Shown one piece after another: positions 15,861 through 42,166 of a stretch of 64,000 bases of DNA. Made by a program: the position numbers and the translations under genes. The notes beneath the pieces are model-generated. The model was not told where the DNA came from. It worked only from the letters and a program-made list of their open reading frames with translations, and did not search any database. The first letter of the stretch is position 1; every line of letters starts with the position of its first letter. The stretch covers positions 63,178,001 to 63,242,000 of the forward strand of contig OX638150.1 of the NCBI GenBank assembly GCA_951804945.1. Direction: 5' to 3'. The stretch is from Podarcis cretensis. Taxonomy: Eukaryota.

Positions 15861-15889
15861 TTCTCATCCAGCGTTAGCCATACTCCGAG

Positions 15890-18574: not shown

Positions 18575-19250
18575 GTGTTTGATGTCCATGATGGGCTGGA
18601 TAAGGGCTAACAAACAGAAACCAAAGCTAGTTCTTTTGATCAGTAGGCAGGATCTTGGTTTGGAGGTTCATTGGCATTGAAGGGGCATGCTATTTGGGGA
18701 AATTTGGACTGAGTCTTAGACCTGGTTTTTCAAATCTTGGACATGGCTAGAAACATCTTTCCATGAATAAGATTTCTGCGCCATCCACATACTTTCTTGA
18801 AAACTTAAAATTTGGCTGTGATGATCCATGCCATCTTGTCTTGATTATTTTAACATGCTGAATATAGGGCTACCTTTGAAGACCATTCAGAACATTCTGA
18901 AAAGTTGTATCAGAATGCTGCCAGCAGGTTTCTTATGCAGGTGAGATATAGTGCTTATGTTACCCAACTGCATTCTGCATTGGCTGCCCATTTGTCTCCC
19001 AGCATAAGTCAGAGTTCTGGTTGACCAATAAAGCCCTAGGGACAAGGTTATCTGAAATACCATCTTCTTCCATACAATCCTGCTGAGAATCGAGACCTTC
19101 CAAATATGCCTTTCTCACTGTCCCTTCAGCTATTCCTAAGACAACAATTAGGGATGGAATTTTCTGAAAATCTTTATGTCGACCTTATCCAGAGAGATTA
19201 TTTCCCCGCCTAATTCCTGCCTTGCTCCTTGATCTCAGTGACAAGCAAGT
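18575..19250 (+). mobile_element. Degenerate L2 LINE 3-prime region
   Basis: Remnants of the LHWLP and KAL motifs (ctgcattggctgccc, aataaagccct). Confidence 0.6.
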
Positions 19251-19699
19251 TTTTTTTTAAACCAGCCCTGCTAAAAATAGAAACATTCTAGCATTTTATA
19301 TGCATATTATATGCATATACATTCCAGGTTTCTTATGGTAGTGCTCACATAAAAGAGATACATGCAGCAATGCATATAACGGAATAATACTTGTGTTTTA
19401 ATACTGTACTTATATAGGACAAAATGGTGCTTCTTTTATATACTAGATATACATATACGTATAATAGATGTATAATTTTGCATATAATTATCCAGGTTTT
19501 TTAAAAACACAAAAATGCATGAGAGGTTCTGACACAAACTTTTGTATTCAAGAGGTGATCCAATACTTGATTGGGTCAGAAAAGCCAGATTCTATGTCTA
19601 AATCCATCCAAAAATATTTTTTGCTCCACCCCACATGACCATGCACAAAAGGGCATTTTCTGTGGTGGTTCCTGCCCTCTGAAACACTCTTCTTCATGA

Positions 19700-19780
19700 G
19701 ATAGAATCCTAGAATTGTAGAGTTGGAAGAGACCCCAAGGGTCATCTAGTCTAACCCTCTGCGATGCAGAAATTCCTCCC
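19700..19780 (-). mobile_element. CR1-type 3-prime tail; other copies at ~7680-7735, ~28355-28555 and ~48690-48830 (+)
   Basis: tagaatcctagaattgtagagttggaagagacc is the reverse complement of the CR1 (ATTCTRTG)n terminus. Confidence 0.7.
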
Positions 19781-21727
19781 ACAGCCATCCCTTGGTGGGC
19801 ACAAACCACCAACCTTCTGGTTATCAGCCAAAGCCACTGACCCATTCCTCTCTATGGTTACTTCACTGCTTGTGTTCAATAGGACAGTTAAAACATTTCA
19901 TTTTAATAAAGGTTTTGAGACCTCTTAATTTTGGGGGGCTGCTGTGAGTTTTACTGTTTTCTATAACTTGTCTTTATTTCATATTGTTTTTAATGTACAC
20001 GGCTCTTAGGGAGGAAGGATGTACAATATTTTAAAAACAATAAACATGCCCATTATCAGGCTTCTGAATTGAGCTGAACCCTGTGTTCCCTACCATAGTC
20101 ACTGCAGTTGATTTATTTGCCTATTTTCTCTCTGCCTCACAATAATGTGAATGCCCTACCGTAGCAGCCAGTTATATGAGAAGCGTGGACAAATTATGGA
20201 AATGCTAATGTGTGTAAATTGTGTGATGAATAAAGAGTCAGAAATGCATTGTATTAGATGAAGTATTCCTTTCCCTCATACTATCTGCACTGGGTTGTTG
20301 AACTTCATTTCTGCTGGATATTATTTGCATTCTGACATAATGTTAATTTATGGTTTACAGTTATGAGAATAACCTACACACACACACACACACACCACAA
20401 GAGCTTCCCCACTCCACTAGGAGATCAGAAACTTCTGCTTTGGTTTTAGATTAGCCAGGTTTAGGACATGGCTTTGAACCCATGGCTGTTAAAACAATCC
20501 AGTTTAATAACCAATACTCTGTGTTTATTGTGATAACCAAACACAACCATTGACTTGCATGGCTTGTTTGCACAAATACTTTTTCATGTGTTAGTGGTGA
20601 CTTTAGGCAACTGTAACATATGACTAGTTTGCACAGAATGAATTGCAACCAATGGGAAAGTAATGTAGGTGCACGACTGAGAAATGAAATATTTGTGTGA
20701 CCTTTTTCATAATAAGGTGCATGGGACAGGTGAATGATACACCTTCTTTGAAAGGAGCAGTAGGACCCAGTTTTGTGAGACCATTATGCCTGGAAACCCT
20801 GATCCTTTTCCAGAATGATTTTCCCAGTGGTCGGGCTGCATTTACTATGTTTCACGAGGCAGAGTTTTAATTTGTCTGTGTTTTTGATAGTTGGTAGACC
20901 CAGAATGACACTAGGTTTCCACTATTTTTGTTTTGTGCAACATCTAATGGGCTTTTGATATATGTTTGTAACAGCCACGGCATTGCAGAATACTGTATAG
21001 TAATAAAATATGGCCATTAGATGACATGTTTAATGTTTTTATAATGCCTTCGATTATAATGTCTTAATGTTTTTATAATGCCTTAGACTTTAATAAACCA
21101 TTTAGAGAATGGTAGCTTAATAGAGAGGTCTTTTTGCTAGTTTTCTGATTGGTTATGTCGATTCATTGTAACACTTTAAGGGCCTCGAACTTTCATCTTT
21201 TTGATTTGTTTACTTCCCAAAGGGTCTGTAGAATAGAAAACATAAGAGAACTGGTACTGAAAGAATCACACATTTGTTATCTGTGTGGTTAACTTGAGAG
21301 CCTTTTTTAACCAGGAAAGGATTACAATCTAGTTCTGCTTAGAACTCATCAAAGGCTTGGTATCACCTTCACTTTATCAAAACTGGAGCCAGTTGGTATT
21401 TTGAGGTCCTGGGGCAGCAAAGAAGGTGTCTTATTTTGTGATGGTGGGAAACAAAAACATTGTAACTAGATTTTACTTAAAATGTTACACAACAGAGTTG
21501 TATTAAGATAAAATAAAATCTCAAAAACATTTCTAAATAAGTTAAATGATCTAGTTGGATTGGATTATGAGAAACTTATTCTCTCCTTAAATACAAATAA
21601 ACAAAATAATTTTTTTAAAAAATAATAAACTACCGAAAAATTCATACACATTTCAGTTATAACACTGAAAGGCAAATATATACTTGTATATTATTATGAA
21701 AATGGTTTTATATAAAGTATCATAAAT

Positions 21728-22382
21728 CAGGGTGAATAAAAAGCAATTATTTTCAAAAAAATAAAAAATTGGATTTTAAAAAAATTTAAATTAGATTTTT
21801 TAAATTTAAATTGGATTTTTAAAATAAAATGCTTTTGGAGGAAAAATCTTTCTAAAGATAGTTTTCTATTTAAGTTACATTATAGTCCAAAGGCTATTCA
21901 TCAGGAAATAAGGATTTGTTTTAAGTTTTTCATGTGTGCTAAAACTCAGTCTAAATTTTTTTTTAATCGTTTAACCACATCAGTTAACAAACATGAATAC
22001 ATATGCTATAATGTTATTGTTTTAGTTAAATAAATTGTTTAAATTGTTATTAAGGAAATGATTATTTTTCTCCTTCTAATAAAGTACAGCAGAAAAGTTG
22101 TCCAAATATAAACAGTTAACTTATTAAACCTCACAATAATTTCATAATTATCTGTCAATGTATTTCTAATAGTATAACCAAATCAGTAATTTTTGATATA
22201 ACTGTAAAAACTACTCTGAAAATTTATTATTCCAAAAATGTAACCTTCATCTGGTTGTAAATATTAAGATTATACCAGCAAGAATGAGTCTTTCTATTTA
22301 AAAAAATCATTTAAATCAAGTCTTACTGACTAGTGACTTAAATAGTTTTTTTAATTGATTTGATTTAAATCAATCCACCCTG
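21728..22382. mobile_element. Non-autonomous hAT DNA transposon, 655 bp, AT-rich
   Basis: Termini CAGGGTG...CACCCTG with perfect 8-bp TSD TCATAAAT (21720-21727, 22383-22390) and subterminal GATTTAAAT-type repeats. Confidence 0.85.
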
Positions 22383-22939
22383 TCATAAATACATAACATT
22401 TTTCAATGAACAGTATTTTATTGCCCAAAATAACTTCATTAAAATACACTTAGTTAATAAAACAATGCTCCAAATATTATTGAGCAGTTCTGAGATTGGT
22501 AGCACTTGTCATAAACCCCCAACCCCATAAGTTGTTATAGGGATTCTCACTAATACAAATGCATTTAATATCAAATCAGAATAAATGTCTTAGAACTAGG
22601 CACCTAGGTAGAATTTATTGTATATACATATGGTGCCAGACGTTTGTAACATCCAAAAGATGTGAAATTCTTTTTTAGAAACATAGGGTGGTATCCAACG
22701 CTACTCAAAGTAAACTCATTGGGTTTAAGTAAGAATTGATTTCTACTGTGGGTCTACTGTGAGTATGGCTTAGTCAGGTGTCACACCATGAAATTTCATT
22801 TCGAAATAGAAATTGAAAATATGAGCAACGAAAGGGAAGAACACATAAAAATACAAGATCACTAATTAAGAGAAAAGGGGAAAGAATAATAAAAAGTGAA
22901 GCTTAATTGGTTATATTCTTGGTATATGAGGTTGTGAGC

Positions 22940-23070
22940 CATGCTATTTTTCTAGAAAAAGAGGTGCCAGAGCTCACCATGAACTTCTCCCTCATTCTCT
23001 TAGAATGGCAATGAGAGGTGCCAGAACTGAGTGCTCGGGTGAGCTCCGGTTGAAAAAAAAAAAGCCCTGG
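22940..23070. mobile_element. Short MITE (probably hAT)
   Basis: Imperfect inverted ends (catgctattttt / aaaaagccctgg) and repeated gaggtgccaga motif. Confidence 0.5.
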
Positions 23071-24143
23071 TTGTAAGGCGATTATAGTAAAACAGCCCGA
23101 TGATCTCTTAACTATTGAAAGCATCAGATGTAGAAATGATATAATTGAATCATAATGAGAAAATACTTGTACACATATAGAAAAACTGTTAATGCACATA
23201 GATTGGAATAATCTAATTCTTCTGAAAGTGCAAACCCTTTCATTTCATTTTGGCCAGTGCAAGTAAGTCACTTCATATACAGATGCTGTCCTATGTACAT
23301 TAGGTACATTATATTATTTAAAATCTGTAATCATTTTAAAGCATTTTTAATAAACAAAGGAGTAACCCGCTCAGGAATAAGATTAACATAGAGAGCAAAT
23401 AAAACTCTTAAATGAATCAAACAATCAAACATGAATCAAACAATCAGTTTGAATTGATTAATGGCTGGCATCATGCTGCAACTGGAGTATGCATTTGCCT
23501 TAAAAATATCAACAGTTTAATTATGCATGTTATAAATCATAATCCTAGATGGCTATATTAAAGGCTCCTTCTCAGCTCCTTATTGACTAAATTGCTACTG
23601 GGATGTATCCTGAGAGCTGCTGGAAAATAACGTAGTAGTGTTATTAAATCTTGGAGAACCTGGGAGAAAAAGGGACCTTTAGATGATATGATTTAGTGTT
23701 CAAGATATCATGAATGAAATTATTAAAAGCTTCTAACACCTTGATCAACAGGACTTAGATCTATTGATTTTAGTGGAATTTATATCCACTTGTTTAGTGT
23801 TTAGTTGGATAGGGATTTAGGTCATTTTGTTTGCTTATAACCAAGCACACATTTCCAGCTTGTGATATTGAGCCTACCAATTATTTAAGCAGGAGCAATT
23901 TCATCTAAGCCAGCCCAAACACCTTTTGCTTGAAACTAAACAGATATATAGGCACACGTACTTTATGCATCATTAGCAGCATTAGGGATTGGGCCAGCTT
24001 TAATTTGCTTGTTTGTAGCATTTTAAGACCACGTACCGCTAAGAGGAACAGCACCTTTCACAATTAACAAAAATCTAAGAGCATCAAACATAACTGCAAC
24101 TTTATCAAATTATGAAAACACTTAATGAAATAAGAATAAAAAT

Positions 24144-24687
24144 TTGTTGTTGTTTAGTCGTTTAGTCGTGTCCGACTCTTCGTGACCCCATGGACCAGAG
24201 AACGCCAGGCACTCCTGTCCTCCACTGCCCCCCGCAGCTTGGTCAGACTCATGCTGGTAACCTCGAAAACACTATCCAACCATCTCGTCCTCTGTCGCCC
24301 CCTTCTCCTTGTGCCCTCCATCTTTCCCAACATCAGGGTCTTCTCCAGGGAGTCTTCTCTTCTCATGAGGTGGCCAAAGTACTGGAGCCTCAGCTTCACA
24401 ATCTGTCCTTCCAGTGAGCACTCAGGGCTGATTTCCTTCAGAATGGAGAGGTTTGATCTTCTTGCAGTCCATGGGACTCTCAAGAGTCTCCTCCAGCACC
24501 ATAATTCAAAAGCATCAATTCTTCGGCGATCAGCCTTCTTTATGGTCCAGCTCTCACTTCCATACATCACTACTGGGAAAACCATAGCTTTAACTATACG
24601 GACCTTTGTTGGCAAGGTGATGTCTCTACTTCTCAAGATGCTGTCTAGGCCTGTCATTGCCCTTCTCCCAAGAAGCAGGCGTCTTTT
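24144..24687 (-). mobile_element. BovB (RTE clade) LINE, 5-prime truncated, young
   Basis: Intact C-terminal ORF (…DAFELWCWRRLLRVPWTARRSN…GVTKSRTRLND), (CAA)n tail, and perfect 15-bp TSD aataagaataaaaat (24129-24143, 24688-24702). Confidence 0.93.
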
Positions 24688-25307
24688 AATAAGAATAAAA
24701 ATAGTTGATGCTGAATGTCAGTGAATTTTTTACTATCCGCTCAGCAGCAATAATTCTAAAAAGACTCAGCAGCCAGGAGATGCCTTTTTAAATAAATAAA
24801 TAAAGACCTCACTTGATGCCAAAAAGCAATGGGACAATGGCAGTACATGATCTTATTTTTAAGCAAGCTACCGTCTTCTACACAAGCTACAGCTTCTTTA
24901 AAGACAGCATGTGTAGAGTGGACTACAATAGTTTGCCAAGGTATAGGTGACTGGCCAAAAATTAGAATAGCAGCAAACTTTAGCACAAATGGGACAAACA
25001 TCACATGAGACTTCAAGAGTAACACTGCATCCATAAACATTTTGAAACTGCAACCACTCCTTATTTTTTTTTACGCACACAGTAGCACTCATACCTAAAC
25101 TATATGTAATGACGAAGATCATTAGTTTTTAAACAAATCACTAATAGTGATTTACAGGGGCGTAGTGTGGGGGGTACCAGGGGGCTGTGGCCTTGGGAGC
25201 ACAATATTTGAGGGGGCAAAAACCAAGTGCCCCCATGTAGGCACCTCCAGTGCAGCCCAGCCCAGTCCAGTGCTCCTCTCCATCCACAGACTGGGCTCCC
25301 CCCTGCC

Positions 25308-25813
25308 TAGAGATGAGAAGGCCTGGGGGAAAACTGGAAAAATTGGGGTAAAAAACAGGGGTTTTCCCCCAGAAAAATTGAAAAAAATAGTTTGATATAG
25401 TTTGAATATTCCACACATTTCCCCCCCCCCCTTTTTTTCCTGAAAAAACTGGCTTTGGGAAAAAACAGAAAATAACATGACCCACCCATTTTTCCATCCC
25501 CCCCCCCCAGGCCTTCCAGCACCCACACTTTAGAGCTCCCAGCCAACTGACACCAGGCAGGTGCTTTCACTGTACTCTTTCCGGCAACTGCTCAAAACAT
25601 TTTCGTTAGGACCAGCCCATCTGAACACGTAGAAGCTGCATGCGATTTACTTCCTTTTAACCACTGCTGACTTTAATCATCTTTTGAATACTCTTAAATA
25701 CCTGCTTTTAACTGTGTTTTATCAATCATTTTAATGTTCTGTTGTATATTTTTGTAAACTGTTTAGAAGCTCTTACCATCATGCAGTTTATAATATATAA
25801 TAACAAATTCAAT

Positions 25814-25870
<57 letters not shown>

Positions 25871-26502
25871 TTTCCTTTCAAATAGAGTTTGAGCCTTAGC
25901 GCAACATACTATTCAGTAACTGGATGTTGGTTCCTTCTGGGCCTGGCATGCAAAAAAATTGCCTTATGTTTTACCCTGGCTGTCCTCAAGTAGAGATGGG
26001 AAGGCCTGGGGGGGGGGGAATTGGGGGACAGGTTTCCCCCCCCCCCAGCCGTTTTTTAGAAGTCCATGAGAAAAATGACAAAAGAGGAAGAGGAAGAAGA
26101 AATGGAAAATGATAGCAGTAGTTCAGAAAATGAGATAGAATAAACTGCATGTATATGTTGTATCCTCTGTCGGTTGTTTTTTTTAAAGCACCACTCAAAG
26201 TGTAGACCTTCTATGGAGCTTAAATATTGAGGCGGACCTTAATTTTATTTGCTGTTGGTGCTAAGGGGCAAATCTGATTATTATTTATGTTGATAGTTTC
26301 TTGCTTTTTTATTTGTTGCTTTTGATGGAAAGGGGGGGGTCATTACCTGTTTTATTGCAAGCATAATACTTTTATATAGACGGTGTTTCATGCAATTTGT
26401 AAAACTACTCCACACTGAACTTTTTTCCAAAATTTCCTTTTCCCCCGGAAAAAAACTATTTCCCCCCATGGCTTCAAAATTTCCGGAAATTTTACATCTC
26501 TA
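25308..26502. mobile_element. Nested composite hAT element, 1195 bp
   Basis: TIR TAGAGATG / CATCTCTA with perfect 8-bp TSD CCCCTGCC (25300-25307, 26503-26510). A second internal left end sits at 25991. Confidence 0.8.
25819..25868. repeat. (TC)n microsatellite
   Basis: Read directly from the sequence. Confidence 0.95.
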
Positions 26503-27754
26503 CCCCTGCCCAGGCAGGCAGGCGGCTCAGCGCAGCCCTGCTTTGCCCTGGTGGGGCTGGGGTCGCTCCGGCAGCATTGGTGTTGAGGGCTGGGCGGATG
26601 TCTCCCACCCCTGTGCATGCCCACAGGCCCTGGGCACTGACAACTGATCTACGCTGCTGGTGATTCATATTGAGACTGTGGGGCTAGAGAAAGGAGATAC
26701 TCCAGAGGCACGTTCCAGCAAAACAGTACTGAGTAACATTTTACTGAAATTAACTGGACTTGCCATTGCAACTAACTTGCTGGATTGTGTCTATAATGTT
26801 GTTTGGAATATTGTTTTATTTGGACAACAAAACAAATGCCTATTATTATTATTAAAAGCTACAGTCATTGTTAAATGTTGCTCTTTTCCTCTGCAGAAGA
26901 TGTTCACAAACTATGTGTGAAAGTCTTGCACTTCTTTGCAATTTTTCACAGACTTCCTTGTGATTTTATTTTCAACCCACCTTTGTAAATAAATAGTCTA
27001 TGAATAGTTCATTGCCCGTGTTTTATATGTGAGCTTTGAAACTCGCCCTTCATATAAGTAGTAATGTGGCATAATTTCCACTCTGGTTCAATACCTTTTT
27101 CAAAACAATGAGTCCCAATATTTTGTTGCTAGATATTCAAGCTTGGCTATTGTCATTTTGTCACAGTGGTTGCAAAGAATGGTGAAACGAGGATTTGAAT
27201 GCAGTGACAAGCCGATGTTTCCAAGTTGCAGAAAAACAGTTGATTAGAATCTAAATAAATATTCTCAGAAATACTACTGTTTCTGTTATGGGAAGGAGAT
27301 TAAAATTCACTCAAATTCTAGGAGATGAGTGTGTTTCAGTCTGAAAATACTGCTGCAGATTTCACATTAGAGCCTTTATGGAGTCTTTAGCAGAAAGGCT
27401 TTTCATCTTTGTGTGTAATTCCTATGTGTGAGTTCATTGTGGATTTTTCTCTATGATAAAACTTTGGGGTTTGTTTTCAATATGGAACACATCACTGTCA
27501 AATACCTGAAACTGATAGCTTCTCTTCTCCATGCAGAGATACATATAGAGGCATGCTATATGTACACACAACCATGCACGTACACACACAAGTCTTTCTT
27601 AAATTATTAACCACAGCATGCTGCTGACCTCATATGAGATTTGTTGAGCAGCCAGTCCTTTGTCCAAGGTACATACAGTCCTTAAGGTATGGTTTCTTTG
27701 AAGATGCATAGAATAGCAGCCTCCCTTTAAATATGCCTGTATATTTAACCGATA

Positions 27755-28009
27755 CAGTGGATGCTTGGGTTGTGAACGTGATCTGTGCGGGAGGCACGTT
27801 CGCAGCCCACAGCATTCGCAACCCGCAGCACTGTGTCTGCACATGCGTGGGTCGCGATTTGGTGCTTCTGCGCACGCACAAAGCGTGATTTAGCGCTTCT
27901 GCGCATGCGCCAAAACCCAGAAGTAACCCATTCCGGTACTTCCGGGTTCGGCGCAGTGCACAACCCGAAAATGCACAACCTAAAGCATCTGTAGCCCAAG
28001 GTATGATTG
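27755..28009. mobile_element. Tigger/pogo-like MITE
   Basis: TA flanks with CAGTGG...ATTG ends. Same family as 48458-48675. Confidence 0.75.
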
Positions 28010-30223
28010 TATATCTAATGTTCATTGTACATTGAATGCACTAAAATTAGAGATCCGAATGAACGTTTAGGGACTCCAGTGGTGGAAGATACATCTGCCA
28101 AAAATAAAAGCCCTAAAAGGATTTATACTGGAATAAAACCAGCTTTTAAATTGTAGGCAAGCAGATCTCATTCTCTTTTTACATATAATATCTCATGACT
28201 TGCATCATTATATTAACAAGAACAGTTCTGTTCTGTAGCATTGCTTGATGCATATTTCCTTGGAAACAATAAGGCTTACTTTCAAGTAGGTGTGCAAAGG
28301 ATTACTGTTTTCATTCCACACTGGCACAGCAATCTACCTGCCCCCTGCCGCCACCAGGAAGAACTTTTTGCCAGTAAGAGCAGTTCGACAGTGGAGCAGA
28401 CTCCCTTGGGAGGTTGTGATTTCTCCTTCCTTGGAGGTTTTAAAGCAGAGTTGGATGACATGTATTAACTAGCTGAGATTTCTGCATTGCAGGGGGTTGA
28501 GCTAAATGACCCTCTGGGGTCCCTTCAAACTCCACAATCCTGTGATTCTATGATTCCGCCCTGGCCTTGCGCAGCAGAGATGGGCGGGGGCGCGACTTCA
28601 GAGACTTATGATTGCAGTCTAGATCTATTACACAGAGTGAAAATGACAAAGGTGAAAACAGCTTAAAAGGCAGCAGTACAAAACTAAAAAGTTAGCGGAT
28701 CATTTAAAGCAGCCTTCACCAACCTGGTGCCATTCAGATGTTTGGGACTGCAACACTGTGGCAGCTTGGGCTGATGGGAGCTGTAGCTCAAAACATCTGA
28801 ATGGCACCACATTGGGGAAGACTAGTCTAATGAATGGCAGAGAGTCAACCTGGTGGATCTTCACTGTGAAGTCGCTCCACAATTTTGATGTCACCTCCAA
28901 GAAAACCAGTCTCTTATATACACCCACCTGAGCTGATGTATAGATGGCCATGAGAGCAGGACCTGTGAGACTGATCTTAAAAGCTGTGGGTCCACAAGGG
29001 AGTGGGCAGTTTTGGAGATTATCTGGTCCCTAAGGTGTTTTTGTAGCTATGCAAGGGAAAGCTATTGTCCAAATTAGCTCTGGCTCCTAAAACAATCCAG
29101 CCTAATCTAGATGGACACCTAGATATTCACCTGGTGAGTCAGCATCCACAAGCCTGAACTGAGATAAAACCAATTCCACTCCAAGACTGAGGGGGATGGG
29201 CAGAATCAAGGAGAGAACAGGAAAACAAGAACTCTGTGGTGTGGTGAAAGGCAGCTTGGGAGAGCGACATTTTGATCAGGAAAACGTCCTACTGAGAGAA
29301 GATTAAGCAGCCACCCCCATTCCACCACAGCCACTGCTGCAATCAAATTCAGAGCCCCTGAGACGGCATTAAAATAAAATTGAAGCTTGCTGAGAGACAT
29401 GTATTTGCTACTTTATGCCTAGTTTGGTCCTATTATGAAATGCTGTGATGCCTAATCTTGTTTTTTTAAAAAAGAATCCCTTTACTCCACAACAGCTGTT
29501 TCGTAAATTATGGCGCTTTCCCCCCCATACACTGCTTGCTGGATTAAATAGTGTTCTGTACTCAAACATTCTGCATCTTTCCGCCTCTGTGGTGAATAAT
29601 CTGCATGCACACTCCTGTCTTCTTCTAGGTAACCAGGCACACAGAAGAGTTTTAGTTCCTGTTGTGGCACACTTTAGAAAGTATGCCAACCTTGCTCATT
29701 ATGCCAGGCAGCTTCACTGCTATTTTAGGTTTCACAGCTGAGAAGATGGCTGTTCCTTTGGGTTACGAAATAAGGGAGCACTTGTCCTGGTTGGAGAGGT
29801 GTTGTGTTTCAAAGGTACTAGCACAGGGAGCAGGTGTGGCATGCTTTTCACACAAAGGTGCTCAGGTAATTACTAATTATACTGCAAAGCCACAATCCAC
29901 TTGTTTTAGGGCCCCACTGTTGAATATTCTGCTGAATGGCTAAGAATATTCTCTCAACTCCAAATGAAATCTATTTATTACTTCTTCCACACACCCCTCC
30001 TTTTTTGTTGCTATATAACCTAACACTCACCTCAGAGGACAGTTTAACAAGAAAAGTATACTATCCACAGTGAGAATCTATGCCTGCTTATTTGAGGCAA
30101 CTTATTCCCAGGGAACTGTGTATAGGATTGCAATAATATAATGGGAATCACTGTATTTGTTTGGAGTCTGCTCTTTAAAATTATTTAGCATTTGGGATAT
30201 TGTGGTTAGGTAAACCCCTGGTA

Positions 30224-30338
30224 CAGTGGCACCTCAGGTTAAGAACTTAATTTGTTCCAGAGGTCTGTTCTTAACCTGAAACTGTTCTTAAGCTGAAGCA
30301 CCACTTTAGCTAATGAGGCATGTAACCCGAGGTACCAT
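30224..30338. mobile_element. Tigger-like MITE, internally deleted relative of 42167-42407
   Basis: Shares gttaagaactt...gttcttaacctgaa...ccactttagctaatg. Confidence 0.7.
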
Positions 30339-32623
30339 CATCACTTGACTAAAAGAATAGTGGTCCCTATAAATTTCATCTCTTGTTTCTGACACACCTA
30401 GGGTGGTAGTCAGGTAGGTTTTACTCAAAATAGACCTGTTGGATTTAATGAACAGGTCTAAGTTAATTTCAGGGTGTCTGTTTCGAGAAAAATTTAGTTA
30501 AATACCCACCTCAGCTTGGAAAGGAAAATCTGTCTGAAACAAACTGTAAGCCACCCAATCTGATGCATTAGTTTGGAGATGTTTTTGGTAAGTACATTTT
30601 AGCTTGTGTCTTTAAGAAAACACAGCTTTTTTTATTGTCAGAGATTGTGAGCTTGCATGCACATGACATTGGCCTGCTTTGGATGACACACTAAGCCAAA
30701 CGTAGGCTAAGCCAAACCTTAGCTTGGCCTAGAGCAGTCTGGCAGCAAAATGGACCAGTGGTTGTGATCTCCTCTTGGGAAGCTTGTACACTCACTCAAT
30801 TTCATTAAGCTAAAGTTGTTTCGCATGTTGTGTGAACCAGGTAGTTGCTTCTCCAGTTACCCAGAACTGACAGAGATTTGGAAGTAAAATGATTCCTTAT
30901 CAGCCTGACTCATCCCCCTGCCGCATGGATAACGATTCTTGAAACTGAGAGGAATTCCAAAATAGTTCTTGGGTATGGTGAGCGCGTGCTGTTCCAAGAG
31001 AACAATGTCATGGGAACTTATGCAACCCCTTGATAATGCCTCAAGCAATTCTTGGAATCCTACCAGCCATGTGTATTTATTTCATGTTGGTTGTGTGCTG
31101 CTGCCATATTGGGAGAGGTGCCATTGGTCTTAGATGTGCATTCCTTTTGTGGTCTCCCCCCCCCCCAAAGAGTTGCTATTTACTCAAAATCACAGATTCC
31201 TGAAATACTTTAACAAATGGCATTAATCTTCCCACTTTGGGCAAAATTTCACATTGGTTTTCTGTGAGAAAACTGCTATTTCAGAAGGCACAAAACTGGT
31301 TCATGGAAAATATTTACCCTCCAGCTCCTTTGTGCCCTTTTCCATGCCTGTTCTGATCCATTGATAGCTCATCTACTTCTGTTTAGAGTGACAGGGAGAG
31401 AACATGTCCACCTTGCCCTCCCTTGTCTTGCCATGCTTTGCTGGAAGCTTCATTGCCCACCACTATTGAGCAGCAGGACTTTTGCCCCAGTCTAGCAGTT
31501 CTGGTGATGCATCATGAATGACCAGGTAGGGAAAGAGTGTAGATGTGGATGGGCATGCACATCTGGATGGTAATCCAAATGGACATGCCATTAAACACTA
31601 TGCCGAATATTCACCCGAAAGTGGAATGTGCATCATTTGTATGTAAGCCAGGATGTGAATATTCATCCACATTCTGCATCAACTGATCAATTTCATTTAG
31701 GCTTTAAATATACTCTTTTGTTATTTGGGAGTACATAAATATTGCAAATCAATAAGTACGACTGGAGTGGAGTGAGGGAGCAATGAGGCGTCAGGGAACA
31801 CATCTGCAACCTTGCAAACAGTTTTGCATTCTGTTGAAAACGTGTGCAAACCATTAACAAGAGGGTGTATTTAACCGAGTGAAAAAAGACCCAAATGTTT
31901 GGCTGAACACAGGTGTAATTCCATTTCTTTTTTACGTCCATGATCTATTGAGATATTGATATACTGTAATTGGTTTATACTCTGGTGTGCCACTCCGTTT
32001 TCTTTGGGGACAGCTTGCCAGCAGAGAGTAGATTAGGTTATGCAGATTAATTGGGATAAATCCTGGCCCCAGAATAGCAAACGATACAGAACAAATCCTT
32101 GGATCATGACTAAATTAGTACTTAGGTGTTGATTGTTTTAGGGAAAAAACCTGAATGTGTATCAGTGCGTCTATGCATGTGCATACACTCAAAGGTGATT
32201 CCTTTTATGGTTTGTGTAGCATATTAAAGCAGTTCCCTTATCTAATGATAGCTAAGTTGAGCGCTATTAGGGTTACACATTAACAATAGTAACGATACCT
32301 TCCCTCCATACGGACATTAGCCTCCCCTTGATCCCCATTTTGAACTTCTTGCCTCTGGCCTCATTAACAGGTTTATTTGGGCTGATCAAGGAGGTCATTT
32401 ACCTCCCATAATTGTGACAAGATTGTGGATGGGGGCGGGAATTCAAAATAAGTTAGCCCTTCTTATCAGAAGATAGTCGGGTGGTGGCAATAAAGTTTTC
32501 AAATATTAAAAATTGGACAATTGGGCTCAATGCCTACTATCAGGAAAAGTGGTTTAATGAATAAAGAATAGGAGTTAATTGGAAAGCAAAGATAGCAGGA
32601 GAGCTGCCTTTGAAGTTAGGGAT

Positions 32624-32720
32624 TAGGGCTGGGTGATATCTGGTTTTCAACATCACAATATTTCACCAGCTAAACATCGCGATATTTCAATATATCACAA
32701 TGTTTGAAATAAGGCTGAAA
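32624..32720. mobile_element. hAT-like left end
   Basis: TAGGGCTGGGTGATATC terminus with (C/T)GATAT-type subterminal repeats. Right end not identified. Confidence 0.45.
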
Positions 32721-33558
32721 CTATGTAGAGGTGAATGTGGTAATGCCCTGGCAACTGCTACTACTTACGGGTTTAACTCTAAAACTGATAAATTTTTACT
32801 TACCTTTAACATATTGTTAAAACTGTTATGTTATAGTACTACTGTACTGATAATGTTTAAATTAGCACATTATCTCTAAAACTAAAGCTGTAGAAGTAAT
32901 TCAGTAGCATAGATATCAAAGGTAAGGTGAGACAGTTTCCTAAAGAATTAATTACATTACTAAACAAGAAAAAAGCCAATTCACAATCACTGTCACAATT
33001 TTAGATATTCCAATATATTTCACTATTTAACCACTATAACAACTAGTGGTTAAAAACAGCTTCTTAAAAACAACAAACAAACAAAATAGTTTTAAAGACA
33101 CCCAAAGTTTGACGTTCTGCTCGAATCAGTAAAACTTAAATCCTATTCAAATATGAATTTTCTGACAAAATTGTCTCCAGCTAGATTTTAGGAGTGGGTC
33201 TTACCACTTTGTCATCAGAGGAAGAAGGAAGTTCTCAAATGGGGAGGGTTTGCATTCAGATAAACAATATATTTGCGACAACTGCATGTAAAAATGCTGT
33301 TAATTTTTTCCATTGCAGATTATATTTTGTTTAAAAAAGGTGTGTGGGGGGGAGTATTCAAGGCTCACACTCTTCAGTCAACCTTAGAAGGGATGTGAAT
33401 GCCTATGTATAATGGGGAATGGCTTTGCTGAGGCTGGCAAACTGTTCTGGTAACGCCTATATTTACTGTCCATATTACCAGCAGAACATCCTCTTAATGG
33501 ACAACTGAGCATGGTGGAAACAAGGGGAAAAAATCAATTGATATATGGATGATACATA

Positions 33559-33747
33559 CCGGATTTTTCCGTGTATAAGACAATGTTTTGTACGATTGGT
33601 GGTCAGGTGGGTGTGCGATTGTTGGCAACCCGCCCCCAAAAAAGCTCAACAATTCGAAGCAATCTCCCCCCCATTTCCTTAATAAGGGGTCCCAAAAATA
33701 GGGGAGTGTCTTATACATGGGGGTGTGTCATACACAGAAAAATACGG
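33559..33747. mobile_element. Tc/mariner (Tc2/pogo-type) MITE
   Basis: TA-CCGGATTTTTCCGTGTATAAGAC ... GTCATACACAGAAAAATACGG-TA inverted ends. Confidence 0.75.
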
Positions 33748-33799
33748 TACATAAAATCTGGCATGAAATGCAGTATTACCATGCAGTGGAATGTTGGAT

Positions 33800-34560
33800 T
33801 GATATTTAAGAAAACTGTAAGTATGCTGTTTAACATATACGTGAAACAGCTTGATGGGGTTACACTTCCTCTGAAGGAGCAGGTACATAGCTTGGGGGTC
33901 CCTCTGAATGAATCCTTTGCTTGAGGCTCGAGTGGCCTCAGTGGCGTAGAGTACCTTCCATCAGCTTCAACTGATGGCCCAGTTGCACCCCTATATGGAC
34001 AGGGATAACCTAACTTTTGTCATCTATGCTCTGGTAACCTCTAGGTTAGATTACTGAAACACATTATGCTTATGGCTGCTCACTAGGGCAAGATGGTTTC
34101 AAATTTCACTGATCCTGGCCAGACTGCACTGGCTAACAGTTAGTTTCCAGGCCCATTTCAAAGTACTATAAAGCCTTAAAAGGCTTTATGAGGCTACCTG
34201 GACCCTGAGATCCTCCTCTGAGGCCCTTCTTCTTGTGTCTCCTGCATGAGAGGTCCAGAGGGTGGCAACACAAGAACAGGCCTCCCCATTTGCAGAATGC
34301 TCTCCCCAAGGTGGCTTGCCTGGCACCGTTACTGCATCTCTTTAGACACCAGGTGAGATCATTACTCTATAATCAGGCCTTTGGCTGCTTAACATTCTAT
34401 GGCCTTTAAATGAGTTTGTCGGGGGAGGGGAGTTATTGGTTTTGTTTTTGTTTTCATTGTGCATTTTGTGTTCTCATTTTGTATTTTTATGTTATGAACT
34501 GCCCTGTGATCTTTTGCTGAAGGGCGGTCTACTACTACTACTACCATTACTACTAAATAA
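33800..34560 (+). mobile_element. L2 LINE 3-prime fragment
   Basis: Motifs LFNIY, LDGVTLPLKEQVHSLGV, RLDY and LHWL, with a (CTA)n tail. Confidence 0.75.
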
Positions 34561-34618
34561 CAGGTGTTCAGAAGCCCATCATTTCTGTCTTTCTCTTTGA
34601 TAATCATTTCAAATGACA

Positions 34619-34772
34619 CAGGCAACTCCCTATTTACGCAGGGGTTACGTCGTTTTTGCCATATTCGCACTCTTTGGGGAACTGTTTTTGCCTCTTTAGG
34701 TGCCATTTCTGGGTTTGCGGCAATGTGGGCGGTCACACATGACTTGATTGTGTGTAAATGGGGAGTTGCCTG
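34619..34772. mobile_element. Tigger-like MITE
   Basis: TIR CAGGCAACTCCCTATTTAC / GTAAATGGGGAGTTGCCTG. Confidence 0.7.
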
Positions 34773-35266
34773 TTGAAGCAATACACAGAAACCTGTCACA
34801 TGAAATGATTTAGGTATAGTTGTCTTTTGTATCCAAACTACCAATCTTCCATGCTTTCTGGTCAACACACATTCCACTAATACAGGGGAATTCCCACTTA
34901 TGTGGGGGGTTCTGTTCCCGGCTACCATGCACATCAGCGGGATGTTCTTAAGTCCCTTCCCCCCCCACCCCCTTTCAGCACTGAAAATAGTGTGTGTGTC
35001 AGCAGTTGCATGTGTGCTGATCGTGCACGAGTGGGAAATGCCTGTATGTCAGAATTCGCAAATTGTAGCTGATACATTTTCCCTTTCCCCTTTTTTCCTA
35101 ATAGCCCTCTCCCCACAAACCCATCTGATAACTTGGAACTGATATAGTAATTGTGTTCACTCTCCACTCAGTCATTAGTTTTTTTCTTCTGTTTATGAAT
35201 CATCCGCATTTCTGTGCTCTACACATATTTGCTAATTATTGACATGGATGAGTAATGCAGCTAAGC

Positions 35267-36130
35267 CAGGGGTTGCCAACCTTTTAGGGGCCACAGGCAC
35301 ATTTTGAATGTTGAAAGTGCCATGGGCACCACCCCCTCTGGTTATTTCTCCCCCTCCCAACCAGACAGAAAGCAGATCTGTGTACGCATGCACATATTCT
35401 TTGCTTTCATAAGTGGTCTGAGTAAAAGTCAGGTGTAGTAGAATTAAAATGGATCCTCTTGAACTTGCAGAATGTGTGACATGGTTTAATGGTGGTTTTC
35501 AGGGGATCCCTTGAAAAATTAGAGTAAATAAGGATCCGTGTCTCAGATCCATGTTTTTGTGTCATGGCAATGCTGGAAAACAGTGGATCTGTAGGGGGTT
35601 TCCAATGGATACAAAAGTGATCCATGATTTGATGGTGGCTTGGGATATGTGTGAACCCATTAAGATTATGAAATTTCAGGAGGATCAATTTTACTGGATC
35701 TGATTTTGTGTGTGGCACGTGCACCTCCTCTCACTCTTTGTCACACTTCACCCTTTCTCTCGACTCTTGTGGCACAACATTTTCTCCTCTCAGCTACACT
35801 CAAGTTTCCCAAATCACTCCAGTTTTCCTCTTTGCCTCCCTGCTTCCTCACTTTTCCTCTTGGTTACTCTGCTTCCTGTTAAGCTGCCCAGAAGCCAATC
35901 TGAGACTCAGAAAGCACAGAGCTGAAAGAAGTGGCGAAGAGTGCCACTCTTTCAACTTCCTCCTCCAGTTCTATGTAGTTTTTAGGAGGGTGAGGGAAGA
36001 TAACCACTCTGGCTACTTAGTAAAGATAGTGCAGTGAGATGGGCGAGGGGATTAAGAGCTTTCACAGGCAGGTATCAGGGGAAGTCCTCCAGGGTGTTGT
36101 TGTGCCCATAGGCACCATGTTGGCAACCCA
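35267..36130. mobile_element. hAT-like element ends enclosing ~860 bp
   Basis: CAGGGGTTGCCAAC ... GTTGGCAACCC inverted ends. No clean TSD. Confidence 0.5.
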
Positions 36131-36874
36131 GAATGAAATAATATATAGGCTGTATTGTTTGTGGACGCCTCTTAATACTCCCCTGCTTCCTTCTAGTTCC
36201 TTTGAGTGACAGAATATTCAGATTATTTGACACTACTTAACAGCCTGATCCTATGCAAAGTTAGACATGCCTAAACCCACTGATTTTTTATATGCATGGG
36301 ATGGACTGTTAATCCTATTTGGCTGGCTGATAAAATAGATTAGAAAAAATGAGTTATCAAGTATGAGTAATTAACGACAAAACAAGCATGCAGACCTTGT
36401 GTTTCTCCAGTTAATTGGGGGCTGGGATGGGGAGGTTTAAATTCATGAAATGTTTGAAATTGAAAGACAAAGTCATGAAGAGCGTTGTAAATGTTCTAGT
36501 GAGATGCCCATCAAATGGGCCAGAGGCGGGAACATATTTCAGAAAGTGGTGATATAGATGGACTGTAGCTGAGTGTGTTGGCGGGTTGTGAGTCAACCTC
36601 CACTAAGTTTTCCCATTCTTAGGTGGGTTTTGGACACCTTTCTTTTCCTCTGCATCTTTTTCCTCCAGGCTTGCCCTCCTATATTGTAACAGGGCTCCTA
36701 TGCCTTTAAAATGCTGCATGTCCAGCACAAAAGTAACAGCTGCTGCTGCTGCTACCCTCATCTATACACTCTTTTTCTTCTATGTAAAGCTGGTGTTGTA
36801 GGAAAAGAGCAGAGGGTGAACTTATAGTAGGAATGGGAGAGCATAAGATTGTGGGTCCCAAATATCAATCAGGT

Positions 36875-37055
36875 TGCTTGACTGTTTAAGTTACATCCCA
36901 TTTGGATTACTGCACTGTGCTCTATGTGGGGCTGGGGGGCTGCCTTTGAAAAGTGATCAGAAACTTCAACCAGCTCAAAAAGCTGCAGCAAGATTGCTGG
37001 CTGGGGCTGGCTATAGGGAGCATACGATTTCCTTGCAAGAACAGCTTCACTGGGA
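36875..37055 (+). mobile_element. L2 LINE fragment
   Basis: Translation includes GLPLKSDQKLQPAQKAAARLL...EQLHW. Confidence 0.65.
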
Positions 37056-37522
37056 GGGAATGCGAAGGTGCTTGCACTCTCTAAGACAGAGGCACTGACG
37101 CAGGAATAAGATGGAGGGCTGGTCGCGTGTGCGCAACGTCATGACGGCGGTGTCACGCATGACGTCACAATGTTGTTTGCGATGCCTGGATGGGCGCTGT
37201 TGCGTGCAACATCCAGACATCACGCAGCATCTCTCCCAGGAGAGACACATGGCTCGGGCACGCTGCAGGCCCTGCGGTAAGTCCCACCCCCTGGGTGAGT
37301 GGTACCCAGTGTGCCCCCCCCCAGCTACACCTCTGGTGAATCCCCTAGGGCCTGTTGTGAATCATGGAGGCCAGTGTAATCAGTACCTGTTTCAGCAGTG
37401 GGCACACAGCAAAATGGCATTCATGCAGGCATCACGAGAAATACTTGTGTGGAGAGGCACATCGTGGAAAGCCAGTGACAGCCAATGTGGTACAGTAGTT
37501 CTCGGACAGTGCATTGTCCCTC

Positions 37523-38094
37523 TGTGATGGCCTGGGAATCCGATTCAGAGGCTGAACCGGAGGAATCCCAGCCTGCACAGGAGTCCCCACCTCCAGGGCC
37601 GGCTGAACTGGGGCAGGGCCTTGATTCTGAAGCGCCTGCACCTGTGCCGGATCCTCAGGAGCAGGAACCAGGTGAATCCACTCTGGCTCCGGAGGTGGTT
37701 GAGGACTCAGTGCCTACAGGTGAGTCTCCCCCTGGGCCCAGTAACCCTTCAGCTTCTCCTGAACTGCAGAGGCTCAGGGCAGAGAGGCGAAGGGAACTGG
37801 TTTCTCCCAGGAGGAGTGCTCGCCTTAAGGCCAGGAGAGGTGGGTCTCCTGGGGGCCGGGACCGCCCCTGGCCTCAGAGAAGATAAAGGCCAGTCAGCCT
37901 GGTCCCAGGTTGTGGGAGCAACGTCGTTGATGAGCTGTTTCGGCCAGCATCCAGTCCTGTTTCCCCCAGAGTTCCTGTCCTTGCCCGGCTTCCCTCTGTG
38001 GACCCCGCTTAGCCCGAGGAGGACTGTCTGCCGACCCTCAACTCAGGTCCTGGACCTCGCCCCACGGTAACCTCCCCCCCCCCGGACCAGCACA
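37523..38094 (+). mobile_element. Solo LTR (Gypsy-like), 572 bp, in CDX1 intron 1
   Basis: TGTGATGG...CCAGCACA inverted termini, perfect 5-bp TSD CCCTC (37518-37522, 38095-38099), and TATA-like GATAAA at ~37882. Confidence 0.85.
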
Positions 38095-38159
38095 CCCTCC
38101 CATACTGCTCACTTGACTGTCTGGATTAGTATGTAAATAAAATGCTGTAATAACTATTG

Positions 38160-38415
38160 AGAGCCAGTGTGGTGTAGTGGTTAAGAGCGGTAGACTCGTA
38201 ATCTGGTGAACTGGGTTCGCTTCCTCGCTCCTCCACATGCAGCTGCTGGGTGACCTTGGGCTAGTCACATTTCTCTGAAGTCTCTCAGTCTCACTCACCT
38301 CACAGAGTGTTTGTTGTGGGAGAGGAAGGGAAAGGATATTGTTAGCTGCTTTGAGACTCCTTAAGGGGAGTGAAAGGCAGGATATCAAGTCCAAACTCCT
38401 CCTCTTCCTCTTCCG
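38160..38415 (+). mobile_element. tRNA-derived SINE with L2-type tail
   Basis: Box A tggtgtagtgg, box B ggttcgcttcc, core gctgggtgaccttgggctagtcac, and (CTC/CTT)n tail. Confidence 0.8.
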
Positions 38416-40418
38416 AACTGAAGTCAATGCTTCCTATTTAGAACAGAATTTGGCCTACTTTTGCTAATATACTTCAGCAGCGCCAGGGCCAAAATCTGGT
38501 GCTCGACATTTGGTGAGCAGCTGGAGATAAGCAATTGCAATTGCCAGGCAGAATTCTCACCGACAACTGATGTTGATCCCAGGCATTAAAATTAATGAGC
38601 AAATGCTCTGGATTTCTCACCCGCTGGGTGCTGGTTTCAATGCCAATCTTATTGGCAAAAGTTAAGGAAAAGACAGCTAACAGACATCTGCTCTTCTCTG
38701 GACTGGTTCCTGTTCAGTGGACTGAGATTCCTATTCAAAAGGATGTTGATATCTTAAATGGTCCTGCCTGATGTTTTGGACAGAATTTATTTATTTGCTG
38801 TTGAGAGTCAAATGGTCATACGGTACTCATGCACTGTGTCACCATAGAGCCCACAAACCCCATAGTTCCCTCGTGGGGCTTCCAAGCCTCTGGAATAATG
38901 CAGAGGTGTAGAAAGTTAATTGTGAGGACAGTTGCAAGATTACACAGCCTCATTTCCATTTTTGTTCCCTACTCCACTGTGCACAAGAGCTCCAATGTAC
39001 ATGACTCATAATTAGTCTGCAGGGGTCCAAGCTGGATAGCTGATGTGAATGTCAGGCTGCCCACAGAGAACTCTGCTCAGTTAATTTCTGGTGGATTTAA
39101 ATTAAATTCATCTTGAATGCTAACAAATTGAACAGGGTGCTTGAGAGACCCTGCAATGGTTAATTAAATATATGAATTGTTTCTATTCTTGAAATTACTG
39201 CCTCTTCTTTTAGCAGTGAATGTTGATCCTTATGCAACCTACCTGGCACCATCCATGCACAAAAGGGGAAGTACCAGCAGATCTACCGAAATAAATAAGA
39301 AAGGGGGGGGGGACCCTAAGAGGGTGGGAACCGTAAAGCAGCCCAGTGAGAGCAAAATATGCACAGTGGCCACAACAATTGCTGACTGACAGCTGCAGCA
39401 GAGAGATGGAGGAAAGCAGAAAAATGAGTGAGAGGGAGAATTGGATGGAATATCGTGGATGAGAACAATGGCTGGACTGGAACCCTAAACAGGAGCACTG
39501 CACATGGCTACGTTTTGTTACCAGTTCCACATGTACAGCTGTTTTATTACTCACAAGGGTTTCTAGATGGCAACAACACAAAACACACACAGGGTGGCAC
39601 ACACCTTTTGTGTTGTCTTAAATTATGTACAAGCTAGCCTGATTTGTGCAAATTCCACAATATGTAATCCCCTCTCAGGGGTTTGCCCTCTGTTTGCATT
39701 TGTCTCTTGGGGAATGGACACTTGCTGCCATTACGGGGAAGGAAAGGATGTGTACGATGTGGAAATGTCTCTTAGCGCACTCCTTATAGACAGAGGTTTC
39801 TTTGTAAAAGTGAATTGGGGCACAGAAACAACATGACTTCCGATGCCAATGGCAATTGCTAGGTCACACCTCAACTACGTGAACATCAAGTAAGAGCAAA
39901 ACAGGGCACATCAAGGGAGCGACTGCAGCTGCTAAGAACGTGCTGCTGTTAAATGGGAAGCCTGAATACCTCTGAAGAATGGAACACTGGAATGAAGAAA
40001 TGTCAACACTGGCAATCAGAGAAAGCTGCGTGGTGTACCACTGAAGAACTGGAACTGATATGTATCTTAATACTTGGCCAAAGTACAAAAAAGCATACAT
40101 TTAAGAATACACTTCCTGTAACTTTAAGAAAAATCTATAGCTAGAAGTTTTAAAAGGCACAACATGAAATACGAATTTTAACTCAGAGAAACATTCCACC
40201 TCCACTACCGCTCCTGCCATTCTCCACCAGCTTACCACTTTGCCATTCCCCGCCTCTCCTGTCCTCTTCCTCCTTTTCCCATTGCTGCTTTCTTCAATGT
40301 TGTTGTTTCAATTAAATTAATGTACTTCCCTTCATCAGATGACCACAAGACGGTTATGGCAATACATTTTCCACATCCCTTCTGCTAATTCAGTGTCTTA
40401 CTGTTTGCTGTTTATTAG

Positions 40419-40564
40419 GGAAGACCAGAACGAAAGACAAGTATCGTGTTGTCTACACAGACCACCAGCGCTTGGAACTAGAGAAGGAATTCCACTACAG
40501 CCACTACATCACCATCCGGCGGAAAGCAGAACTGGCAGCGACGCTGGGACTCACCGAGCGGCAG
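40419..40564 (+). CDS. CDX1: CDX1 coding exon 2 (homeodomain N-terminal part, 146 bp)
   Basis: Acceptor tttattAG at 40417-40418. Reads (G)[48 protein letters not shown]. Donor CAG|GTTGGT. Phase joins exon 1 correctly. Confidence 0.97.
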
Positions 40565-41917
40565 GTTGGTACAGAAGGGTCTTGCACAGGAGTGGGGGGT
40601 CCTGTTGGACTCCCCACTAACTCCAATCAGCCCCAGCTAGCATAGCCAATGTTCAGCAGTGGCGGGAATTGGGAATCCGGCAACAACTGGAGGGCCACAA
40701 GTTCCTCGCCCCTCATGTAGCAGGATCACAAACCATCACAAAATGTAAAGCATTACAGTGAGCATCTCAGGCACAGATGCCAGTGCAAATGTTGAGGACA
40801 AAGACTGCAATCTTATACACACTTACCTCGAAATTGACCCCACTGAATACAGTGGCTTACGTTTGTGTAAATACGTATAGGATCAGGCTGTGAATGTGCT
40901 TCATGGTTGGTTATCCTCTGTCTTGCTTGGCAGATATCAAATGTAGGCTAGATACCTACATAACTGTTTTTTAGTTAGGTGGTCCAGGTTGGCGGGTAGT
41001 GATGGGCCAAGGAAAACGTGGTCAGATGATGAGCCCTTTATAGCATTGGCATCATTCACCTGCCTCAGTGTAGGTCCCACTTTCCTCCTCACTGTTTGAC
41101 TATGACTGAATAGTTCTCAGCAAGAAACCTTAATGCTCAGCTATTACTATGTGGAACATTAAAATGACACAGAAGATTGGAAGTCCCCAGAAAGGTATCT
41201 GATTGCAGACTATTAGGGGCATTAGAAAACAGCAAAAACATCCTAAATGAATTCTTACCGTTATGTATCCATTTTGCCTCTGCTCTGAATCATGCCATGC
41301 TCTTCCTCCTCTCAATTCCTTTTCATCTCTGCCTTTCCTTGGCCACTATATATTCTTTTACTTTGCCTGTCCCCTCATTTGTCTTCTTTCTGTAACTTGA
41401 ACCATCTCATAACTACAGTACATACACACATCATTTTATTTGTATGCCACTTTCCATATTTCAAACCATGCTCAAGGCAGCTGACACCACGAAAGAAATC
41501 ACGTAATTACAAACATAACAAAACTAGTCATAAGCAATAAATAAAACACCAAAAAAGTCACAACCAAACTGAACAATTTCAACATAAGTCATAATGCATT
41601 TAAAAATATAGTATCAATAACACTAATACTAATAACACTAATACTAATAAAGATTTGTATCAATAACAGCACACACACCTGAACAAAACCCCCTATGCAC
41701 AGCCCAAGAGTCTTTTCAGAAGCCTCAACTTTTGTAGATGGAGTCAGTCAGGGCTCCGCTGTCCCACGCCAGGTGAAAAAGGCTGACAAGACAGGTCTTC
41801 CTGGACTCACAGTGAAGATGGTCTTGTCCTGGGCATCCATCTCAATCCTCTTTCTCTCCCATCTTCCTCCTTTATATTCTGTATGGCCTTTACCGCCTTC
41901 TGCGTTTGTCTCTGCAG

Positions 41918-42121
41918 GTGAAAATCTGGTTCCAGAACCGCAGAGCAAAGGAAAGGAAGGTGAACAAGAAGAAGATGCAGCAGCAGACCCAGCCTGCCAG
42001 CACAACCACACCGACTCCTCCAGCAGTTGGCACCCCTGGTCCCATTGGAGGCATCTGCAGCAGCACTACCAACCTGGTTTCCTCATCACCAATGACTATC
42101 AAGGAAGAATTTATGCCTTAA
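41918..42121 (+). CDS. CDX1: CDX1 coding exon 3 (recognition helix and C-terminus, stop TAA)
   Basis: Acceptor tctctgcAG. Reads [19 protein letters not shown]...[12 protein letters not shown]. The C-terminal KEEFxP and downstream SLC6A7 identify CDX1 rather than CDX2 or CDX4. Confidence 0.96.
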
Positions 42122-42166
42122 ACCCAGCCCTTCCAGTTGAACTGCATATAAACCAAAACAGCAATA

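Follow-up and report, generated by a model that had tools for sequence, protein, structure and literature searches.

The 64,000-nucleotide stretch of Podarcis cretensis DNA analysed here (the window) contains a CDX-family gene and, on the same strand, a solo long terminal repeat (LTR) of a Ty3/gypsy chromovirus that encloses a 119-codon open reading frame (ORF) (Table 1). The exon positions on either side of the solo LTR place it in intron 1 of the CDX-family gene, for which the junction of exons 2 and 3 is given by a contig joint at 40560-41914 with GT..AG borders. A preliminary description of this DNA had located the LTR in sense orientation inside CDX1; the strand and the CDX-family intron stand, whereas the choice between CDX1 and CDX2 is not split by the scores (86.7 versus 86.2 bits). 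Short, very deep, high-copy repeats, presumably tRNA-derived SINEs, lie beside the LTR (38160-38410) and past the last CDX exon (42160-42410).

Table 1. Features of the window that bear on the LTR-encoded reading frame (window positions)
Feature	Position	Strand	Basis or detail
Host CDX-family gene	11976..42118	+	Exon 1 from about 11976, exon 2 end 40564, exon 3 from 41918
Solo LTR, Ty3/gypsy chromovirus, 572 bp, TGTG..CACA	37523..38094	+	Same sequence at both ends of full-length elements
Target-site duplication CCCTC, 5 bp, left copy	37518..37522	.	Flank comparison
Target-site duplication CCCTC, 5 bp, right copy	38095..38099	.	Flank comparison
119-codon frame, LTR-encoded Pol/integrase C-terminal tail (almost certainly), orphaned in the solo LTR	37527..37886	+	
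Acidic, proline-rich linker, residues 1-75	37527..37751	+	Constraint weaker, in-frame length variation
SPELQRLR conserved island, residues 77-84	37755..37778	+	
RRSARL, HMGN-like motif	37809..37826	+	RRSARLKA vs RRSARLSA, 7/8 identical
GATAAA, putative TATA-like word, overlaps TAA stop codon	37882..37887	+	Word seen in sequence

At the level of the locus, the preliminary description was accurate. The element is a TG..CA solo LTR bounded by a 5-bp duplication, the 119-aa ORF is open with the residues as quoted there, its stop codon is overlapped by the GATAAA word at which the frame had been said to end, and RRSARL lies where it had been placed. Residue counts confirm the acidic, proline-rich N-terminus and basic C-terminus: residues 1-75 include 18 D/E, 17 P and no K/R, while residues 76-119 include 15 K/R. 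Searched alone, the tail returned no Pfam family at E values up to 10 and no look-alike in the ESM Atlas. Since base shuffling of the LTR, which is GC-rich, gave an ATG-started ORF of at least 119 aa in 12% of 20,000 trials, ORF length by itself is weak proof of a protein. Of 90 position-ordered copies of the LTR, 61 keep the ORF frame free of stops across 110 codons, compared with 19, 2, 0, 4 and 0 for the other five frames. The GATAAA word is present in 45 of 50 LTR copies of the subfamilies A-C defined below. AATAAA and ATTAAA are missing in 50 of 50 such copies, and the polyadenylation signal of these subfamilies is, as judged from the letters, non-canonical or unrecognised.

The genome contains 2,854 exact matches to the 15-nt LTR start (control, 0), corresponding to ~2,850 LTR copies, and a search of the same genome with the LTR gave 2,373 candidates, 40 of which were scored at 97-100% identity. 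All 30 of the nearest copies are solo LTRs with a 5-bp duplication, carrying one mismatch in three cases. Full-length elements were sought through the family purine tract (PPT) directly before an LTR start, a combination of purine-tract and LTR-start patterns that was found at 34 places. A 5′ LTR lies within 8 kb at 28 of these, mostly at a distance of ~5.5 kb, and is 91-99% identical to the 3′ LTR, except in two places at 84 and 88%. Chromodomain sequence stands immediately upstream of the family PPT at 32 of the 34. Pfam domains on three long natural frames follow the order Gag, protease, RT, RNase H, integrase, SH3 and Chromo (one frame is without the integrase core), with the chromodomain (PF00385, E 1e-14) behind SH3_Tf2-1 and upstream of the PPT. 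This domain order, together with the chromodomain after integrase, the TG..CA LTRs, the PPT and the 5-bp duplication, identifies the element as a Ty3/gypsy chromovirus. Residues Y, W and Y stand, as judged by eye, at the places expected for an aromatic cage from the HP1 positions; methyl-lysine binding by this chromodomain is putative. A Y-W-Y aromatic cage is the mark of the type I chromodomain in the accessible text of PMC3605345.

Several further features of the family were observed. The 2,854 LTR starts against 34 family-PPT places correspond to a very high share of solo LTRs; the first 3.1 Mb of C1 contain 30 LTR starts, about five times the genome mean; three recombinant LTRs (L195, L237 and L043) combine the start of subfamily A with the insertion of subfamily B; and the sequence behind the 5′ LTR does not open with TGG, as a tRNA primer site usually would.

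In full-length elements, Pol passes the PPT without a stop, the purine tract being translated as G-D-G-V and followed by the M-A-W of the LTR frame, and long elements have stop-free runs from RT through the LTR tail. One copy of the older subfamily C likewise reads from its chromodomain into its own LTR, and a UniRef Pol of Podarcis muralis (P0004, 1240 aa) has the same tail, RRSARL included, as its C-terminal end. The ATG of the frame is part of the LTR-terminal TGTGATG, and other families with the same layout have no Met there. Given the in-frame readthrough, the UniRef Pol with the same tail and an ATG tied to the LTR end, the 119-aa frame is almost certainly the C-terminal tail of a chromovirus Pol/integrase. 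The preliminary description had offered an integrase tail of a lizard LTR retrotransposon as its alternative and had proposed looking for pol reading into the frame in full-length elements; that alternative proved right, and pol does so.

The chromodomain-in-frame count varies with the test applied. A stop-free run from chromodomain to LTR is found at 15 of 34 places by a loose test, in which part of the domain suffices, and at 10 of 34 by a strict one. Among 42 PPT-bearing places, the chromodomain is in phase with the LTR frame at 20, out of phase at 21 and undetermined at one, and the 21 out-of-phase places indicate that many integrated copies encode a Pol that lacks the tail. Nearly every break falls at one G run shortly before the PPT, after which many of these frames stop at the LTR start. 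This phase break (L062-L095, L102-L124) could reflect slippage, assembly error or a switch between tailed and tail-less forms. Public Podarcis gene models (P0003, P0005-P0008) splice the LTR frame to Gag or to a host receptor gene, as a prediction artefact or by exonisation.

To follow the tail through the family, the 90 position-ordered copies were divided into three subfamilies (A, B and C), whose LTRs contain Pol tails of about 114-119, 129 and 142 residues. An ORF of at least 100 aa is present in 64 of the 90 copies, with exact RRSARL inside it in 31. Ratios of pN to pS were calculated as uncorrected proportions, from pairwise differences between real copies only, for the 53 of 91 copies (the 90 plus that in the window) with a usable frame; the 38 copies with no such frame were omitted, as were two A/B recombinants, and the filter (an open frame plus a motif-like word) biases the set toward conservation. 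Net pN/pS between subfamilies is 0.47 for A-C (bootstrap 0.35-0.65), 0.47 for B-C (0.33-0.64) and 0.66 for A-B (0.41-1.15, not significantly below 1), and within subfamilies pN/pS is 0.66-0.86. For the basic block, the net values are 0.30 (A-C), 0.19 (B-C) and 0.31 (A-B). Net A-C differences at codon positions 1, 2 and 3 are 24.3, 24.7 and 42.2, an excess at third positions that appears between subfamilies but hardly within them, where the three positions are nearly flat. Shared indels are in frame in 4 of 4 cases in the ORF versus 4 of 32 past the stop (Fisher p 0.001, the post-stop events not being fully independent; one 30-nt ORF indel that the aligner split into 4+26 was counted as one). 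In three pairwise comparisons of long elements, pN/pS is 0.31-0.40 for the tail and 0.12-0.37 for RT, RH and the IN core. The 30 nearest copies (29 open, 25 with RRSARL) were chosen by similarity and were excluded as selection evidence. Thus, the ratios, codon positions and indels agree that the tail has been maintained at the protein level in lineages that replicate, with decay in solo copies. The check on ORF preservation and selection ratio proposed in the preliminary description accordingly ends in purifying selection on the tail between the three subfamilies, with A-B alone not significant.

Within the tail, the motif departs by a single residue from the HMGN core octapeptide RRSARLSA, which is therefore incomplete here, and all three arginines are included in the match. 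Subfamily A has exact RRSARL in all 17 copies, subfamily B in 9 of 25 and subfamily C in 4 of 9, and the arginines at motif positions 1, 2 and 5 are present in 17, 10 and 4 of these copies, respectively; where older copies deviate, the change is mostly from CGC to CAC or TGC in one arginine codon, that is, CpG decay. An SP kinase site beside RRSARL, as had been noted earlier, is present in subfamily A (13 of 17 copies) and absent from all 34 copies of B and C, and a conserved kinase site was rejected. According to the available part of PMC12487698, HMGN2 and Dsup dock on the nucleosome acidic patch via an RRSARL-type motif, as seen by cryo-EM, and the Dsup version, RRSSR, binds through the three matching arginines; the same three are required for acidic-patch binding by yeast Dot5 RRSARIAT in the portion of PMC13347269 that could be consulted. 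The Dsup and Dot5 motifs thus demonstrate that near-matches outside HMGN can function. Complex prediction for residues 72-119 with H2A and H2B of the same genome scored 0.02, 0.63 and 0.02 in three runs, with the median under the mark and with controls not folded, and was given no weight for or against docking.

Taken together, these observations are probably best explained by an orphaned Pol tail whose basic block would help tether integrase to chromatin, possibly by placing RRSARL on the H2A-H2B acidic patch. The Pol polyprotein would read through the PPT into the 3′ LTR, adding the tail behind the chromodomain, and the tail would be retained on mature integrase, where a flexible acidic linker could space the basic block from the chromodomain. 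The basic block would then add another point of contact with chromatin and might assist nuclear import: the chromodomain may engage a methyl-lysine on a histone tail and an arginine anchor the acidic patch, giving two nucleosome contacts that could steer or strengthen integration. A function of the tail in chromatin tethering, DNA tethering or nuclear import is likely; that RRSARL specifically acts as an acidic-patch anchor is a tentative prediction, to which somewhat less than even weight is given.

The strongest competing possibility, though one considered less than probable, accepts the integrase tail but treats its basic block as a nuclear localization signal or a non-specific DNA/RNA-binding patch that resembles HMGN by chance. 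LTR tails of other squamate families share the acidic-then-basic layout with unrelated basic words, as this reading would have it, and RRSARL is not singular in the tail: among 105 six-residue windows ranked by least amino acid change, SPELQRLR takes ranks 1-3 and RRSARL rank 4, so that SPELQRLR is conserved at least equally. Shuffling residues 76-119 produced RRSxRL in 1.1% of cases, but exact RRSARL in only 0.11%. A generic patch, moreover, should allow K/R swaps, yet R-R-S-A-R-L is kept while both flanks change, and the motif persists between subfamilies at ~70-78% DNA identity.

It is unlikely, on the present evidence, that the DNA coding for RRSARL is instead a promoter or enhancer element of U3 and the peptide its passenger, the remaining tail being kept open as Pol. 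The 18 nt concerned are the most invariant DNA window of the frame (rank 1 of 105), they lie in the putative U3 ~55 nt upstream of the TATA-like word, and their net synonymous change is 0.0 of 4.5 sites for A-C and 0.9 of 4.3 for B-C; 18 nt nearly free of synonymous change could be accounted for by such an element. However, the missing synonymous change is not significant at so few sites (p about 0.07), the Leu codon differs synonymously between A and B, and selection at the protein level extends through the surrounding block.

The preliminary description had favoured a separate accessory protein, likened to nef and sag. Such a protein, whether started at the ATG of the frame in a spliced transcript or made from solo LTRs by host readthrough, is now very improbable. 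Every one of the 90 copies sampled has the ATG, as the search pattern itself required, and as candidate splice acceptors the one copy examined has two polypyrimidine-AG words ~300 nt upstream of its 3′ LTR. The copy in the window, too, has three rare differences in the ORF that are all third-position, two of them common to other copies. Against such a protein, the frame is continuous with gag-pol rather than separate, the ATG falls within the terminal TGTGATG, which integration requires, families of the same layout lack it, and solo copies decay near-neutrally, as the within-subfamily ratios and flat codon positions indicate. A U3-encoded gene of this type was therefore rejected. That the ORF arose by chance in the GC-rich DNA of the LTR and has no role as protein is scarcely credible despite the shuffle result and the lack of Pfam and Atlas matches, this reading being refuted by the between-subfamily pN/pS, which falls under the within-family baseline, and the third-position excess, along with the in-frame Pol and indels.

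The solo copy in the CDX intron, which would be the remnant of recombination between the two LTRs of one element, is an ordinary one. Since the reading frame precedes the putative TATA of the LTR itself and the whole element sits in a host intron, the copy is probably silent and makes no protein. Guessed-RNA contigs over the LTR are short and differ from it at many letters, and are thus not assignable to this copy. Exaptation was considered and rejected, three synonymous rare sites, two of them shared, being too few.

Comparison with related elements places the Pol tail with its candidate anchor in a wider setting. In other chromovirus families of the same genome, 101-103 Pol residues lie inside a 406-422 bp 3′ LTR in 6 of 6 cases checked (L127-L165, L286-L291), in which an acidic stretch gives way to a conserved, arginine-rich end with Cys and Trp; this arginine-rich LTR tail may be another targeting module. 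An acidic-then-basic LTR tail is likewise present in the Rhineura (P0011) and Vipera (P0017) relatives, with unrelated basic words and no RRSxR. The maintenance of ORF and motif, raised as a check in the preliminary description, therefore holds across the subfamilies of this family and fails beyond it, with RRSxR in none of 35 loci of other chromovirus families in the same genome, several of them cut short by stops. Among the matches listed, RRSxR occurs in one of 149 chromodomain-bearing proteins, many of which are chimeric gene models. A profile search from 13 copies returned six proteins, all from Podarcis, among 7,996 scored candidates, which is weak evidence on range. In a tree of 67 SH3-plus-chromodomain rows with several long branches, the element and the other squamate rows fall into a single group (moderate support, 88/91). 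Repeated acidic F-x-G-F-P words before the PPT were observed in other chromovirus families, and chromovirus matches including P0045, P0046, P0057, P0082, P0085 and similar ones have a PRGRP word, which we take to be an AT-hook-like motif, directly behind the chromodomain. The PRGRP word suggests that the slot behind the chromodomain may often hold a second chromatin-binding motif. On a still more tentative view, squamate chromoviruses share an LTR-encoded integrase tail of ~100 residues, in which the lacertid family may have evolved a working HMGN-type acidic-patch anchor that, with the putative aromatic-cage chromodomain, would form a two-point nucleosome reader steering integration.

Little work has addressed how vertebrate LTR retrotransposons choose their integration sites. 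Should the motif bind the acidic patch, the HMGN-like motif class (HMGN, Dsup and Dot5) would extend to a mobile-element integrase, and a convergent parallel to the anchors that foamy virus and MLV carry in Gag would be established. Across squamate chromovirus families, the use of U3 as both promoter and coding sequence mirrors plant CRM elements. In addition, ~2,850 LTR copies spread an acidic-plus-basic coding module through the genome as raw material for exonisation.

The element shares with vertebrate chromoviruses the domain order, the chromodomain after integrase, TG..CA LTRs, PPT and 5-bp duplication. The V-clade, of which it is a putative member, includes Sushi-ichi and Amn-san according to the accessible part of PMC6317226. 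Closest in sequence is UniRef A0A670IJD3 ("Gypsy retrotransposon integrase-like protein 1") of Podarcis muralis, with the same tail at 81% identity. In several matches to fish- and amphibian-type chromoviruses, judged by eye and including many chimeric models, Pol appears to end soon after the PPT, whereas the lizard Pol runs into the LTR for about 115-140 residues. Coding sequence also overlaps U3 in HIV nef and MMTV sag, which are separate proteins made from spliced RNAs. The U3 overlap is common to the lizard frame, but the latter is the end of Pol and not a separate protein. A nearer precedent is found in plant CRM elements, where Pol extends into the 3′ LTR and encodes a targeting motif, as described in the available parts of PMC3059260 and PMC3605345. 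In CRM group A (CR motif/CHDCR), however, the CR motif replaces the chromodomain, whereas the lizard element, here likened to that group by description, keeps its chromodomain upstream of the PPT with the tail behind it.

With HMGN, Dsup (RRSSRLTS) and Dot5 (RRSARIAT), the lizard RRSARLKA shares the three arginines and a low-complexity setting. It differs from HMGN in lying inside a polyprotein, at the C-terminus, with the acidic region before rather than after it, in having no HMG14_17 match, and in that its binding is predicted. Membership of the HMGN family was accordingly rejected, as the tail has no Pfam match and is part of Pol, not a small stand-alone host protein. Among retroelements, foamy virus Gag binds chromatin at H2A-H2B through a short arginine motif (PMC5072296, in the part accessible), and an arginine anchor serves PFV Gag, and probably also MLV p12, in tethering integration complexes (PMC11054761, likewise in part). 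The lizard tail resembles both in carrying a short arginine motif within a retroelement protein, with tethering predicted in its case; the foamy virus and MLV anchors are Gag-derived and retroviral, whereas the lizard motif is integrase-linked, LTR-encoded, part of a retrotransposon and unrelated in sequence. The literature search, outside which lay most subscription papers, Repbase and Dfam, found neither an HMGN-like motif on a retrotransposon integrase nor the lizard tail. Neither the extension of Pol into a 3′ LTR nor an arginine anchor in a retroelement is thus without precedent, and the protein sequence of the tail is already in UniRef; what appears to be new, as far as the searched literature shows, is an HMGN-like motif carried on a chromovirus integrase.
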